A stretch of 52,483 bases of DNA from IMG/VR virus record IMGVR_UViG_2877251553_000005; one strand, given 5' to 3'. Numbering within the stretch: position 1 is the first letter of the stretch; each line of letters begins with the position of its first letter. Made by a program: the position numbers. This document shows positions 18,001-24,000 of the stretch, in pieces. Source of the DNA: a virus (taxonomy: Duplodnaviria; Heunggongvirae; Uroviricota; Caudoviricetes).

Positions 18001-21000
18001 GTAAGGATTGCCGTGGGCGTGGTGTCGCCATTCATCGTGAAGAGTCGGTAAAACGTGGTATGCCTGTTATCAGAGACTGCCAGCGTTGTGGTGGTCGTGG
18101 CTGTGAAAGACTACCATCAACGGAGGCATTTAATGCCATATGCAAAGTGACGAGTGCTATCACGCTTGATACGTGGAAAAAATCAGTGAAACGCTTTTAC
18201 GATACGTTGGTGGTTCGGTTTGACATTGAAGAGGCATGGGCGGAGCGGCAGTTAAAGAGGGTAACGCGATAGTGTTGTTGATTTTTCCCGAATCTGTGGT
18301 AAATTTGCTCTAACGATGGGCGTTTTATGCCTGACGTTAGAAGATTTTTTACACCCCGCCGCCTGGCGGGTTTTTTATGACTGAAATCGCGTCAGTACAG
18401 TAAACGCGCTGGTGGCGGTGAATACCTGTCTTTCAGCTTGCTGGCTTTTTCGACAAGAGTTATTGGTGTGTCACGTTAACCGGAAAAGGGAAAAAGACAT
18501 GCTGAAACAGCAGGATATGACAGAAACCGCCAGAGTGGTGTTTAATGAATTAAGCGTTAACGACCCGGCGACAGTCGGGGAGATTGCGCAGAATACTTAC
18601 CTTTCACGCGAACGCTGCCAGTTAATACTGACCCAGCTGGTTATGGCGGGTCTGGCAGACTATCAGTTCGGTTGTTACAGACGCCTTCCGCAGTGAAGGC
18701 TTTTTTATTTGTGGTAAATGGGCGGCTGGTGGGTGTTAGGGGCACCCACCAGCCATCTGCTCATGCGTTGGGTTCACAAGCAAACCTCAGGCCCACTGCT
18801 TTGCGCAAAAGCAGAATGAGCCTATCAGAGACAGGCTTAATGATCCATGCTTAATACTGTAAAAATATCCAGTTGTGAGTTAATCAACGCCGACTGCCTG
18901 GAATTTATCTGGTCGTTACCCGAAAATTCTGTTGACCTGATAGTCACGGACCCGCCGTACTTTAAAGTGAAGCCTGAGGGCTGGGATAACCAGTGGAAGG
19001 GCGACGATGATTACCTGAAGTGGCTGGACCAGTGTCTGGCGCAGTTCTGGCGGGTGCTGAAACCTGCCGGAAGTCTTTACCTGTTCTGTGGTCATCGCCT
19101 GGCATCTGATATCGAAATCATGATGCGTGAACGCTTCAGTGTGCTGAACCATATTATCTGGGCGAAGCCGTCCGGACGCTGGAACGGATGCAACAAGGAA
19201 AGCCTGCGGGCGTATTTCCCCGCCACAGAGCGCATTCTGTTCGCGGAACATTATCAGGGGCCGTATCGTCCGAAAGATGCCGGGTATGCGGCGAAGGGCA
19301 GTGCACTGAAACAGCATGTGATGGCCCCGCTGATTTCTTACTTTCGTGATGCGCGCGCGGCCCTGGGGATAACGGCAAAACAGATTGCAGATGCCACAGG
19401 AAAGAAAAACATGGTGTCGCACTGGTTCAGTGCCAGTCAGTGGCAGCTACCGAACGAAAGCGATTATCTGAAATTACAGTCGCTGTTTGCCCGGGTGGCA
19501 GAAGAGAAACATCAGCGCGGTGAACTGGAAAAGCCCCACCACCAGCTGGTGGATACGTATACGTCACTGAACCGGCAGTATGTGGAGCTGCAGAGTGAAT
19601 ATAAGCATCTGCGGCGGTATTTTGGTGTGACGGCGCAGGTGCCGTACACGGATGTGTGGACACATAAACCGGTGCAGTTCTATCCCGGGAAACATCCGTG
19701 CGAAAAACCGGCAGAAATGCTGCAGCAGATAATCAGCGCAAGCAGTCGTCCGGGTGACCTGGTTGCAGATTTTTTTATGGACTCAGGTTCAACGGTAAAA
19801 GCGGCACTGGCGCTCGGGCGTCGTGCGATTGGCGTTGAGCTGGAGACCGGACGTTTTGAGCAGACGGTTCGGGAAGTACAGGATTTAGTCAGCCAGAACG
19901 GATGATATTGCAGAATTAATTACGCGTCGTTATTATGCGGCTCCCGGCCCTTTAGCTCAGTGGTGAGAGCGAGCGACTCATAATCGCCAGGTCGCTGGTT
20001 CAAATCCAGCAAGGGCCACCATCACATACCGCCATTAGCTCATCGGGATAGAGCGCCAGCCTTCGAAGCTGGTTGCGCGGGGTTCGAGTTCTCGATGGCG
20101 GTCCATTTATCGGTATTCTGCGTTGTTAGCTCAGCCGGACAGAGCAATTGCCTTCTAAGCAGCTGTGGTTGCACTCCTGTTGTTTCTGGTGGTGATGGTG
20201 GACTTCAGCAGCCGGATAATGTCGGTGCTGTCTGATGATGTTTTGGTGGCGGGTGTGGTGGTTGTTGCTTTCCCGTTGCTGAAAAAGAAAGCATCAGGCG
20301 ATTAGCAGGGTATCAGTTACCCGTTGAAATTTTTAAATACCTCACAATTCCACAGCTTGATGATTGTCTGGCTGCCGGAGAATTTGTTAAAAATTACATC
20401 GCATGGTGAATCCCCCTCAGCGGCGGGGCATCTGGCAAAGTGTATGATCCAGAGAACATGCAAATTCAGTAGACAGGCTGAATTTACCGGGAGGCACCTG
20501 GCACCATGCGACAGACAGAAATTAGGCTATACTTCAGCCCCTCTCCGGAGGGGCTTTTCTGTGCAGGATGTGTCACAGTTTCCTGAATTCTGAGTACTGT
20601 CCTGTTACTCAGGGTGCTATATTTTCTGACGTGATGAAAGTCTGCCGGAAGGCGGAACGTATCGGAAATGACCCAGTAGAGAAAACGTTGACTCAGATAC
20701 CGATGCTGAGTTACCGGGAAACCGGCATCACATGACCGCTATCCTTCCAGGCTCGCTCCGGCGGGCCTTTTTACTGCAGAAAACAGTTTTCCCGTAAAAT
20801 GCTACGTTGCTCATAATTCAGGCTGGCGATTATTGTCTGGCCAGCGGGAAGTTTGTTAAAAAATTTCGCATGGTGAATCCCCCTGTGCGGAGGGGCAATC
20901 AGCGAGTAGGTATATGGGATAATCGCGGATTCAGGTGCTGGTACTGAATTCACCGGGAGGCACCCGGCACCATGCAATGGCACATAGCGCCACTCTCCAG

Positions 21001-24000
21001 CCCCTCTCCGGAGGGGCTGTTTATATTGATTTTGTCAGATGTGAGTAAACTCCTTATGGACTTTGTTGTTTTAGTCCATAAGGACATATTTGCAGAGTGC
21101 AACGGTTATTAAAGCATTCATTCAATACGTTATCTGTATTTGTAGGGCATTCCTGGCTGTTTTTGATTAAATTCCAGAATGTTTTATTGAATGGCACTAC
21201 GTTGTAAATGGTTACAGGTAGCACTTTGTTATTGAGCATGATGCCTGTGTGAGTCAGTGTAAATATACTTTCAGGAGGTAAGAAAGCATCCGATTGATAC
21301 CAGATTATTAATTTTATTTTACTCCATATGACTGAAAAAGATATTCCGCATGATGGCTGGATAACTGTATCAATCACAATCCACTTCATTTAGTTTCCTT
21401 GTTTATGTCTTGCTGGTGATGTTCTGAAAAGTATAAATGATATTTTTGATTGTAAACCATAGAGCAGAATTATTTTTCTGATGTTGTTTATTGTTTATTT
21501 AAATGCATGGTGGTTTATATCTCGTCTTGTAGTTTATCCATGCATATCTGCTTGATGATGAGGTTTTTATTTAAGGTATGGTTTTGTTTTTTTCTGTATT
21601 ACATGTCAGGTATTTTAAAGAATCATTTTTCAGATGGTGGAAAGAACCATGGCATTTAAACACTATGATGTTGTCAGGGCGGCGTCGCCGTCAGATCTTG
21701 CGGAAAAGCTGACACATAAACTGAAAGAGGGCTGGCAGCCGTTTGGTAGTCCGGTGGCCATAACCCCTTATACCCTGATGCAGGCGATTGCAGCAGAAGG
21801 TGATGTGGTCGTCAGTGGTGCAACTGAGCCGGAGTGGTACTACGTCATCGTACTGGCCGGGCAATCCAATGCCATGGCTTACGGTGAAGGGCTTCCGCTT
21901 CCGGATTCTTACGATGCGCCCCACCCACGTATTAAGCAACTGGCCCGTCGCAACACAGTGACTCCCGGTGGTAAAGCATGCGCATTTAACGACATCATTC
22001 CGGCAGACCACTGCCTGCATGATGTTCAGGATATGAGCGCACTGAATCATCCGAAGGCAGACCTGAGCAAAGGGCAGTACGGCTGTGTCGGCCAGGGCTT
22101 ACATATTGCCAAAAAACTGCTTCCGTATATCCCGAATAACGCGGGGATCCTGCTGGTACCATGCTGTCGTGGTGGTTCGGCATTCACCCAGGGCGCGGAG
22201 GGGACATTCAGTGCGGACACGGGGCCAGCCAGGATTCGGCACGCTGGGGTGTGGGTAAACCGTTATATCAGGACCTGATCGCACGCACCAAAGCGGCATT
22301 ACAGAAGAACCCGAAAAATGTGTTGCTGGCGGTGTGCTGGATGCAGGGCGAATTTGACATGAGCGCTGCCACCTACGCACAGCAACCGGACCTGTTCACG
22401 GCCATGCTGAAGCAGTTCCGTACTGACCTTTCCGGATTTAACGCGCAGTGCCATGGCGGCAGTGCTGCAGTTGTACCGTGGATTTGTGGCGACACGACGT
22501 ATTACTGGAAAAACACATACGGCACACAGTATGACTCCGTCTACGGCGCGTACAAAAACAGGGAGAGCGACAACGTTTTCTTTGTGCCGTTCATGACCGA
22601 CGGTAACGGCAACAACACGCCCACCAACTTACCGGCAGAAGACCCGGATATTGCTGATGCAGGTTATTACGGCGCGCAATCCCGTAGTAATGGTAATTGG
22701 GTATCGTCAAATCGTCCGACACATTTCAGTTCATGGGCGCGCAGGGGCATTATTTCGGATCGCCTGGCAACCGCTATTCTGAACGCAGTTGGTCGAACCA
22801 GCGCCTTCATCAGCGGTACCGCACCGGAGATTAAACCCTCGCCCGGCGGCGACACGCCATCGGGGCCGTCTGATGGTGACACATCCGTTCGTACAGTCTC
22901 CCTGCTGCCGACAGCCGGAGAGGCTGCTGCGCAGGGCTGGACCATCACCGGCGGCAGTGTTGCGCTGGAAGATGGTGTGTTTAAGGTTACCAAGCAGAGC
23001 AATAAAACCTGGTCCCTGATGCATCCGGTGGATGACGCAGTCTCCCTGCTGACACGGGGTGGCAGACTGAGCTGTAAGTTTCGACTGTCAGGCGCACTGA
23101 CCAACAACCAGTTCGGTCTGGGAATTTATCTGTATACCGATGTAGCGTTACCTGACGTCGTGGCGATGACCGGGACTGGTAACCCGTTCCTGATGTCGTT
23201 CTTCACCCAGACCACAGACGGCAAACTGAATCTGATGCATCACAAGAAAGCCGGAAACACAAAGTTGGGCGAGTTCGGGAATTACAGTAACGACTGGCAG
23301 ACGCTGGAGCTGGTGTTCACCGCCGGCAGTGCCACGGTTACTCCGAAACTGAATGGAGTGGCTGGCCCGGCATTCCAGGTCATAAAAGACAGTCTGACAC
23401 TGGGGCTGAATGCGCTGACGCTGACGGATATTACCAAAAATGCAGCGTATGGCGTTGAGATAGAAAGTCTGGTGCTGGAGATAAATGCACCGGCATCATC
23501 ATAAAAAGTGAGCCAGTCAAATGGAAGGTATCGTTAAACTCACCGGTAGTGTCAGTGGGTAGACTGGCCCCCTGAATCTCCAGACAACCAGTATCACTTA
23601 AATAAGTGATAGTCTTAATACTAGTTTTTAGACTAGTCATTGGAGTACAGATGATTGATGTCTTAGGGCCGGAGAAACGCAGACGGCGTACCACACAGGA
23701 AAAGATCGCAATTGTTCAGCAGAGCTTTGAACCGGGGATGACGGTCTCCCTCGTTGCCCGGCAACATGGTGTAGCAGCCAGGCAGTTATTTCTCTGGCGT
23801 AAGCAATACCAGGAAGGAAGTCTTACTGCTGTGGCCGCCGGAGAACAGGTTGTTCCTGCCTCTGAACTTGCTGCCGCCATGAAGCAGATTAAAGAACTCC
23901 AGCGCCTGCTCGGCAAGAAAACGATGGAAAATGAACTCCTCAAAGAAGCCGTTGAATATGGACGGGCAAAAAAGTGGATAGCGCACGCGCCCTTATTGCC

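Follow-up and report, generated by a model that had tools for sequence, protein, structure and literature searches.

A tandem array of STnc100-family small RNA genes in the late region of a lambdoid prophage, with a diverged third copy and modular alleles

What are the two similar, structured elements of about 200 bp that lie at positions 20362-21032 of the viral record IMGVR_UViG_2877251553_000005 (Caudoviricetes), and do they correspond to a small RNA (sRNA) that already has a name? The record, whose full length of 52,483 nucleotides (nt) is hereafter called the window, is a lambdoid prophage with the integrase gene at its start. A first-pass annotation of its sequence had described the elements, copy A and copy B, as candidate genes for sRNAs or for short open reading frames (ORFs), and had left the question of a name undecided. 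Here we identify them as STnc100, the family of which EcOnc27 (sRNA103) is an allele and PasD (EcOnc13) a relative. We conclude, at a probability of roughly 0.78, that region 20362-21032 consists of STnc100 prophage sRNA genes in a head-to-tail array of copy A, a third element named M, and copy B. The family has been catalogued before, and the feature is thus real and not new; novelty is low because the array belongs to a known, named family. The additions made here are the third paralogue, a reassignment of the promoter elements, a modular map of alleles, and the rejection of the ORFs. In practice, the elements can now be labeled correctly as prophage sRNAs of the STnc100 family, which existing annotation tools recognize and some members of which neighbor Shiga toxin genes.

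To count as a member of the STnc100 family, a sequence had to reach the curated gathering threshold of 47 bits with the full covariance model. In an Rfam scan of the whole window, a check proposed in the first-pass annotation, both copies matched RF02076 (STnc100) over model positions 1-206, copy A (20371-20564) with 140.5 bits and copy B (20840-21028) with 132.8 bits, at E values of about 1e-29 to 1e-31. Since these are full-length matches above the threshold, A and B belong to a curated sRNA family, and homologues in this family are transcribed, Hfq-bound, and verified on Northern blots, which bears out the reading of the pair as sRNA genes. Family membership is established directly, as are the fold with its covariation, the modular structure of the alleles, and the absence of a conserved ORF described below. 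The parts of the two copies are as follows.

20371-20564 (+): copy A, STnc100-family sRNA gene, a rare allele
~20401 (or ~20355 with the upstream start) to 20560 (+): predicted RNA of copy A
20401-20509 (+): structured 5' domain of copy A, from consensus and single-sequence folds
20401-20408 with 20502-20509 (+): closing helix of copy A, GCAUGGUG with CACCAUGC
20412-20428 (+): CCCCC/GGGG hairpin of copy A, followed by a variable middle hairpin, inside the closing helix
20487-20501 (+): CCGGG-AGGCA-CCUGG hairpin of copy A, inside the closing helix
20506-20508 (+): AUG of copy A, which like GGGAGG lies within helices of the 5' domain
20510-20535 (+): linker of copy A, GACAGACAGAAAUUAGGCUAUACUUC, a candidate seed, unpaired in the minimum free energy (MFE) and centroid structures
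20536-20560 (+): intrinsic terminator of copy A, with an 8-bp stem and a UUUUCU tail
20840-21028 (+): copy B, STnc100-family sRNA gene, the commonest allele
~20868 (or ~20824) to ~21024 (+): predicted RNA of copy B
20868-20875 with 20968-20975 (+): closing helix of copy B
20976-20998 (+): linker of copy B, AAUGGCACAUAGCGCCACUCUCC
20999-21018 (+): terminator of copy B

The two copies are 81% identical overall and form direct repeats at a spacing of ~467 bp (20359-20393/20828-20862, 80%; 20399-20430/20866-20897, 91%; 20478-20509/20944-20975, 94%). All blocks previously described for the pair of paralogues were found in place: the CCCC-N9-GGGG hairpin, with loops that differ between the copies, and the motif ACCGGGAGGCACC(T/C)GGCACCATG can be read directly in both. 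The terminal hairpin AGCCCCTCTCCGGAGGGGCT is exact in A and B and occurs exactly twice (20536-20555 and 20999-21018; 0 expected by chance). The U-run said to follow it in both copies is interrupted in copy B (CTGTTTATATT), and the terminator block is present not twice, as had been thought, but three times, the third (20745-20771) being 74% identical and part of element M. Copies A and B fold with MFE values of -59.6 and -69.5 kcal/mol (z scores of -3.44 and -3.14 against shuffled sequences). In a sample of viral contigs (designated L with a number), the allele of copy A was found only in L001 and L112; the 3' module of copy B is identical to that of the element downstream of stx1B in prophage Sp15 of the Sakai strain.

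A sensitive Rfam search of 20100-21300 revealed an additional STnc100-like match between the copies, at 20600-20775 on the plus strand, which spans the full model with 30 bits (E 2e-4). Because this score is below 47 bits, M is not an STnc100 member by the Rfam threshold; it is a diverged third STnc100-like paralogue that the first-pass annotation overlooked. Its parts are as follows.

20615-20623 (+): candidate extended -10 of M, TGcTATATT
~20629 to 20773 (+): predicted RNA of M
20732-20748 (+): linker of M, AUGACCGCUAUCCUUCC, 17 nt, unpaired
20749-20768 (+): terminator of M

The fold of M (z -2.57) has the architecture of A and B, with a closing helix GUGAUG/CAUCAC, a CUGCC/GGCGG hairpin, CCGG-GAAA-CCGG, the 17-nt linker, and the terminator. 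A second M allele, present in L015, L030, and L097, is 86% identical across the region between the copies and keeps this fold. The differences between the two alleles are concentrated in helices, with seven in the 5' hairpin, which still forms a hairpin, and one that lengthens the closing helix to 8 bp, and the linker and internal region are identical. M occurs, as two alleles, in 673 of 5,426 complete Escherichia coli genomes (12%), and among the records listed no feature is annotated under the M match, so that M is a widespread unannotated paralogue that could be of use to those who study STnc100. The full A-M-B array was found in 404 E. coli genomes and is 99.5% identical in sequenced induced phages. 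A longer array is seen in viral contig L089 (4984-5196 and 6956-7937): of its five STnc100 copies, four follow one another in tandem without interruption and differ in their middle and 3' modules.

The suggestion that selection acts on RNA structure in these elements was examined by the proposed comparison across homologues. A scan of the viral contigs yielded 113 family elements, reduced to 28 representatives, of which 17 diverse ones were aligned with A, B, and M (n = 20). RNAalifold recovered the Rfam architecture de novo from this alignment, namely the long-range closing helix, the 5' C-rich hairpin, the middle hairpin, the CCGGG-AGGCA-CCCGG hairpin, and the terminator, and 95.5% of the cells placed on the consensus structure are paired. 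Double-sided changes that keep pairing occur in 13 of 28 base pairs, compared with 4.6±1.4 in shuffled alignments (0 of 500 reach 13) and 2-5 in slid controls. The middle hairpin (UUCAG/CUGAA, UUCGG/CCGAA, UUCUG/CAGAA) and the terminator covary most strongly, and the compensatory change in conserved stems across 20 diverse sequences upholds the suggestion.

The same comparison revealed that the family is modular: the blocks GCAUGGUGAAUCCCCCUGUGCGGAGGGGC and CACCGGGAGGCACCCGGCACCAUGC are nearly invariant, whereas the middle module and the module of linker plus terminator that they flank vary. Some family members are recombinants in which an STnc100 5' half is joined to a PasD-type terminator. 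Hybrids of this kind in L017, L020, L040, L054, L064, L079, and others combine an STnc100-type 5' half, a long U-rich 3' region, and the PasD-type terminator GGCTGCGCATGGCGCGGCC, and we take their sequences as direct evidence of module exchange between STnc100 and PasD. A scaffold with swappable putative seeds predicts allele-specific targets.

Previous work on the family places the array among known prophage sRNAs. STnc100 was first listed in Salmonella, and in strain EDL933 there are 11 copies, all of them transcribed, of which STnc100_4 is Northern-positive (PMC5331693). The window shares with STnc100 the closing helix, the 5' hairpin, the middle hairpin, the GGGAGG hairpin, the terminator, and the prophage location, and nothing essential differs; in the window, two particular alleles stand in tandem, separated by a third copy that scores below the threshold. 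The Hfq-binding sRNA EcOnc27 is the STnc100 copy 75 nt after stx2B and is named sRNA103 in EDL933 (PMC12711010, PMC12370729, PMC7873438). This RNA of the Stx2 phage Sp5/BP-933W (Tree et al. 2014; Gruber and Sperandio 2015) has the same family and scaffold as A and B, and the linker of copy A aligns with and is recognizably related to its linker (ACAGAGAUUAGGCAUAUAC against ACAGAAAUUAGGCUAUAC), whereas the middle module and terminator sequence of EcOnc27 are unlike those of the window copies. EcOnc27 is convergent with the anti-sRNA AsxR and adjoins stx2B, whereas the window has neither stx nor an AsxR or AgvB partner.

Tree et al. described sRNAs of this kind in at least eight prophages of the Sakai strain, in the interval from the late promoter to the lysis genes, where they often form a convergent dyad with one of the anti-sRNAs AgvB and AsxR (PMC4104026, PMC7873438). 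The dyads of enterohemorrhagic E. coli (EHEC) prophages occupy the same moron slot as the array, but AgvB and AsxR, ~55-60 nt sponges on the opposite strand, are absent from the window, where an IraM-like gene stands in their place. No match to AgvB or AsxR (RF02702/RF02703) was found at the gathering threshold in the whole window, nor at E<=1 in 20100-21300, while the positive control L041 gave an AgvB match of 96.5 bits. In L041, Sp5, and Sp15, the STnc100 copy abuts a convergent AgvB/AsxR-type RNA.

The PasD1 and PasD2 sRNAs of the enteropathogenic E. coli (EPEC) strain E2348/69 were described as structural relatives of STnc100 located between Q and the sialate esterase gene, and common ancestry of PasD and STnc100 has already been proposed (Zhu, Shabalina and Storz 2026 preprint). 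PasD1/PasD2 (EcOnc13) score 41 and 38 bits with the STnc100 model, below the threshold. They share with A and B the 5' block GCAUGGUGAAUCC and its hairpin, the GGGAGG...CCAUGC core, and the promoter geometry, and they have the synteny of the window, in which Q is followed at a distance by the DUF3927 gene, the sRNA, and the esterase and lysis genes; the DUF3927 neighbor is the same in E2348/69. Their 3' half differs, with a UGUGAG seed and the terminator GGCUGCGCAUGGCGCGGCC, neither of which is present in A, M, or B. When A, B, and M were aligned with PasD1/PasD2, no relation to the PasD-type 3' half (UGUGAG followed by a GGCUGCGCAU(G/U)GCGC(G/A)GCC terminator) was found, and inspection of the A, M, and B RNAs for UGUGAG found none. 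Adjacent paralogues with a common scaffold and diverged parts are likewise known from OmrA/OmrB, PrrF1/PrrF2, and Qrr. Those are core-genome duplicates with shared seeds, whereas in the array it is the putative seeds that vary, and modular recombination among phages seems to have put the copies together.

The 5' ends of the RNAs bear on the promoter assigned in the first-pass annotation, which had taken TTGTTA as the -35 and TGAATC as the -10 element, 17 nt apart in both copies. The hexamers are present, but the spacer is 17 nt in copy A and 15 nt in copy B. RNA-seq coverage puts the estimated 5' end of PasD1 at the G of GCAUGG (Table S6), so that TGAATC would lie inside the RNA. The assignment was rejected on the grounds of this position, the unequal spacing, and a consensus scan that found no plus-strand promoter there. 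From the sequence, TTGTTA is more plausibly a piece of an extended -10 (TGtTAAAAA) than a -35 element. The candidate promoter elements are as follows.

20343-20348 (+): CACAAT box, a candidate alternative -10 of copy A that would give a ~205-nt RNA
20812-20817 (+): CATAAT, the corresponding box before copy B
20364-20369 (+): weak -35-like TTGTCT of copy A, followed by an 18-nt spacer
20385-20393 (+): candidate extended -10 of copy A, TGtTAAAAA, with a start predicted near G20401
20833-20838 (+): TTGTCT of copy B
20854-20862 (+): extended -10 of copy B, TGtTAAAAA

Upstream of PasD-type elements we find TTGACT-N18-TAAAAA and then ~7 nt to the G of GCATGG, and upstream of STnc100-type elements, including A and B, TTGTCT-N18-TAAAAA with a preceding TG that completes the extended -10. 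This geometry of a -35 element, N18, TAAAAA, ~7 nt, and G is common to the two types of upstream region, which are otherwise unlike, and M has TGcTATATT at the position equivalent to TGtTAAAAA. The conserved geometry thus moves the TTGTTA box of the family to the extended -10. The sequence CtCACAATTCAG is conserved upstream of most STnc100-type elements, and most of them carry a CtCA(C/T)AATTCAG box ~55 nt before GCATGG (20340-20352 and 20809-20821 in the window). Judged by its sequence, CACAAT/CATAAT, which lies 55 nt further upstream, may serve as a second -10. In Salmonella LT2, an RpoD signal was detected at STnc100 promoters by chromatin immunoprecipitation with exonuclease treatment (ChIP-exo), which by analogy supports independent transcription of the elements. 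The promoter-like sites TTAACA-16-GACAAT on the minus strand (20390-20363 and 20859-20832) are the same conserved boxes mirrored.

Variants at this promoter have been recorded in Shiga toxin phages. Paganini et al. 2025 reported that stx2a phages associated with hemolytic uremic syndrome (HUS) and phages with an stx2c backbone are separated by a T/C single-nucleotide polymorphism at ~+90 and a T deletion at ~+103. These variants correspond to TTTGTTAAAAAAATTTCG against TTCGTTAAAAAAATTCG when L125 2930-2952 (Sakai Sp5, +85 to +104 after stx2B) is compared with L088 and L099. The polymorphism abolishes the TG of the putative EcOnc27/STnc100 extended -10, and the deletion shortens the spacer between the -10 and the start. 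In L088 and L099, the Paganini variant adjoins an stx2B that is 96% identical.

How the array would work is proposed here from its homologues, on the literature of which transcription, Hfq binding, and seed position rest. EcOnc27 was found by Hfq crosslinking and analysis of cDNA (Hfq-CRAC) and by Northern blotting, and its 247-nt form is destabilized without hfq. PasD1 and PasD2 are hubs in Hfq networks obtained by sequencing of ligated pairs of interacting RNAs (RIL-seq), and their seed, UGUGAG, immediately precedes the terminator. The Northern probe of EcOnc27 is reverse-complementary to the linker of the Sp5 STnc100 element, and the Hfq-CRAC peak of this RNA, after correction of the coordinates by 135 nt, covers the GGGAGG hairpin, the linker, and the terminator; the EcOnc13 Hfq peak covers the PasD1 seed and terminator arm. 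Because the peaks of EcOnc27 and EcOnc13 cover linker and terminator, and because the seed of PasD is found directly before its terminator, we propose A, M, and B as Hfq-dependent base-pairing sRNAs, with pairing most likely through the variable unpaired linker. The sRNA coordinates in Table S2 of Tree et al. 2014 are 135 nt below those of NC_002695.2 at Sp5 (~1.268 Mb) and unshifted at Sp3 (0.90 Mb); used unshifted, they misplace EcOnc27 and AsxR, and a placement of the EcOnc27 peak over the upstream leader was rejected once this offset was corrected. The EcOnc13 probe in the supplement of Tree et al. has no match at the Sp3 locus and matches an Sp15-type leader, and it was not used to place the 5' end.

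In the lysogen, A, M, and B would each be transcribed from their own sigma-70 promoter, most likely of the extended -10 type, with TGtTAAAAA serving A and B and TGcTATATT serving M, and each gene would stop at its own intrinsic terminator. In each RNA, the GCAUGGUG/CACCAUGC helix would close a conserved 5' scaffold of several branches and bury GGGAGG and AUG; an unpaired linker of 17-26 nt, different in each of the three copies, would follow, with the terminator last. By analogy with EcOnc27, EcOnc13/PasD1, and PasD2, Hfq would bind the region of linker and terminator, and the linker would serve as the seed for host and prophage mRNAs; we propose distinct target sets for the three RNAs because their linkers (20510-20535, 20732-20748, and 20976-20998) differ. 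During lytic growth, polymerase modified by Q would pass the three terminators. For the array locus, this read-through, the use of the promoters, the identity of the seeds, and the targets are inferred. A wider and more tentative proposal, to which we give less than even odds, is that the three genes act as one sRNA array in which M is functional, having both an extended -10 and a distinct, invariant linker of its own, and in which a conserved scaffold takes up seed and terminator modules swapped by recombination, with which the STnc100/PasD hybrids agree; in this proposal the T-to-C change that sets HUS-associated stx2a phages apart from stx2c-backbone phages falls on the TG of the extended -10, which would link the level of EcOnc27 to clinical outcome. 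Allele-resolved annotation matters for genotype-phenotype associations such as those of the HUS-linked variants downstream of stx2.

Several observations weigh against the view of the array as Hfq-dependent sRNA genes. A scan of the region for consensus promoters on the plus strand found none, and neither candidate promoter matches the consensus strongly. The Northern sizes of STnc100-type homologues (~177, 222, and 235/247 nt) exceed the 155-175 nt predicted for a start at GCATGG, and EcOnc27 itself measures ~235/247 nt on Northern blots, compared with 171 nt from the G of GCATGG to the U-run. The U-tail of copy B is weak in the context of the window. The near-invariance of the two core blocks exceeds structural need and hints at a sequence-specific role. 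When the three linkers were searched for complementarity within the prophage, the longest Watson-Crick matches were 8-10 nt, no better than for shuffled linkers. Expression, Hfq binding, and targets of A, M, and B rest on analogy with homologues; STnc100 is still listed as an RNA of unknown function, and the sole phenotype is up-regulation of fimZ/espA upon sRNA103 overexpression, for which no mechanism is established.

The elements might act mainly in cis, as three stacked terminators that insulate nanS-p and the lysis genes of the lysogen from transcription of the tRNA and DUF3927 genes and that only Q-modified polymerase passes, the RNAs being by-products. The three plus-strand hairpins (20536-20555, 20749-20768, and 20998-21019), against 1.5±1.2 expected in the region, speak for such a role, as does the constant position between late promoter and lysis genes across lambdoid prophages. 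We nevertheless regard it as improbable as the main function, since it leaves unexplained the conserved and covarying 5' domain of 100 nt, as well as the Hfq binding and RIL-seq networks of homologues and the allele-specific variable linkers, and the cis-terminator and sRNA roles are not mutually exclusive. Less credible still is that the elements are decaying, non-functional duplicates kept only through the reshuffling of phage recombination. The high mosaicism of the family, with its recombinant and hybrid alleles, the weak U-tail of copy B, and the sub-threshold score of M would fit such decay, but substitutions between alleles keep pairing, the linker and internal region of M are identical in two alleles whose hairpins differ at seven positions, and hundreds of genomes, as well as inducible phages, have kept the elements.

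The lowest probability, a few percent at most, falls to the alternative that each element encodes a small protein, of 26 codons in A and 46 in B, from GGGAGG-N8-ATG. In its favor, the Shine-Dalgarno-like GGGAGG and the ATG hardly vary within the family, and ribosome footprints are seen on several EDL933 copies of STnc100, where ribosomal coverage reaches 3.2. A small protein would be expected to keep its length and sequence and to have its stop inside the transcript, but across 55 variants the frame ranges from 4 to 46 codons and its stop lies beyond the terminator in 52 of them, so that the terminated RNA would have no stop codon. The peptide changes completely with a swapped 3' module, one variant has ATA for ATG, GGGAGG and AUG are held within conserved helices, and M keeps the helices with GGGAAA in place of GGGAGG. 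None of the ORFs that overlap the elements, including longer ones of 89, 55, and 70 amino acids, has a Pfam match. Both the short and the longer ORFs were rejected as genes, there being neither conservation nor a Pfam match, and the earlier doubt about the short frames was justified.

The genomic context agrees with that of STnc100 elements, which lie in the late region of lambdoid prophages, after Q and before the lysis genes; in the window, the array follows Q and the tRNAs and precedes the SASA esterase, holin, and lysozyme genes. The order of genes in the window is Q, a DNA methylase gene, tRNA-Ile2(CAU), tRNA-Arg(UCG), a tRNA-Arg(UCU) fragment, the DUF3927 gene, the sRNA array, the IraM-like gene on the minus strand, nanS-p as two ORFs, and the lysis genes. 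The neighbors of the array are as follows.

17451-18272: Q antiterminator gene (PF03589)
19946-20021 (+): tRNA-Ile2(CAU)
20029-20105 (+): tRNA-Arg(UCG)
20120-20161 (+): 42-nt 5' fragment of tRNA-Arg(UCU) (argO), 41/42 identical to Sakai argO2
20165-20305 (+): DUF3927 gene for a small membrane protein, directly upstream of copy A (PF13064, E 3.8e-18)
21054-21389 (-): IraM-like anti-adapter gene (RpoS stabilizer), convergent with the array, named after the PGAP annotation of a 98.8%-identical locus

The earlier placement of the elements between tRNA genes and nanS-p is correct as to order, but these do not flank them directly, since the tRNA fragment and the DUF3927 gene intervene upstream and the IraM-like gene downstream. 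The statement that the elements lie where Stx phages carry stx did not hold: Stx phages have both, with the sRNA immediately 3' of stxB. In Sakai, stx is located between the STnc100 element and either the tRNAs (Sp5) or Q (Sp15); because stx precedes the element in both prophages, the sRNA is a neighbor of stx and not a replacement for it.

Several minor features surround the array. ARAGORN finds only two tRNAs, and the argO homology ends just past the anticodon loop; we read this fragment, from its sequence, as the recombination junction that joins the tRNA cluster to the DUF3927 module. The IraM-like gene product has no Pfam match, and an A/T-rich inverted repeat at ~21040-21075 may be the terminator of its gene. 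The nanS-p gene (21634-23504; DUF1737, SASA, and DUF6645) is split into the overlapping ORFs 21634-22278 and 22161-23504, an arrangement suggestive of a frameshift; its closest intact homologue shares only 90% identity, with 17 gaps in the alignment. In Sp5 and Sp15, a further conserved terminator of the PasD type (CTGCGCAA..GCGCGGCCTTTTT) precedes nanS-p, after the AsxR/AgvB-type RNA (L125 ~3200-3260; L126, minus strand), and may belong to yet another small RNA. Other Rfam matches in the window are DicF (5316-5367, minus strand, 76.7 bits), the sok antitoxin next to hokD (14882-15057, plus strand, 117.1 bits), and IS009 (50909-51107, plus strand, 223.8 bits).

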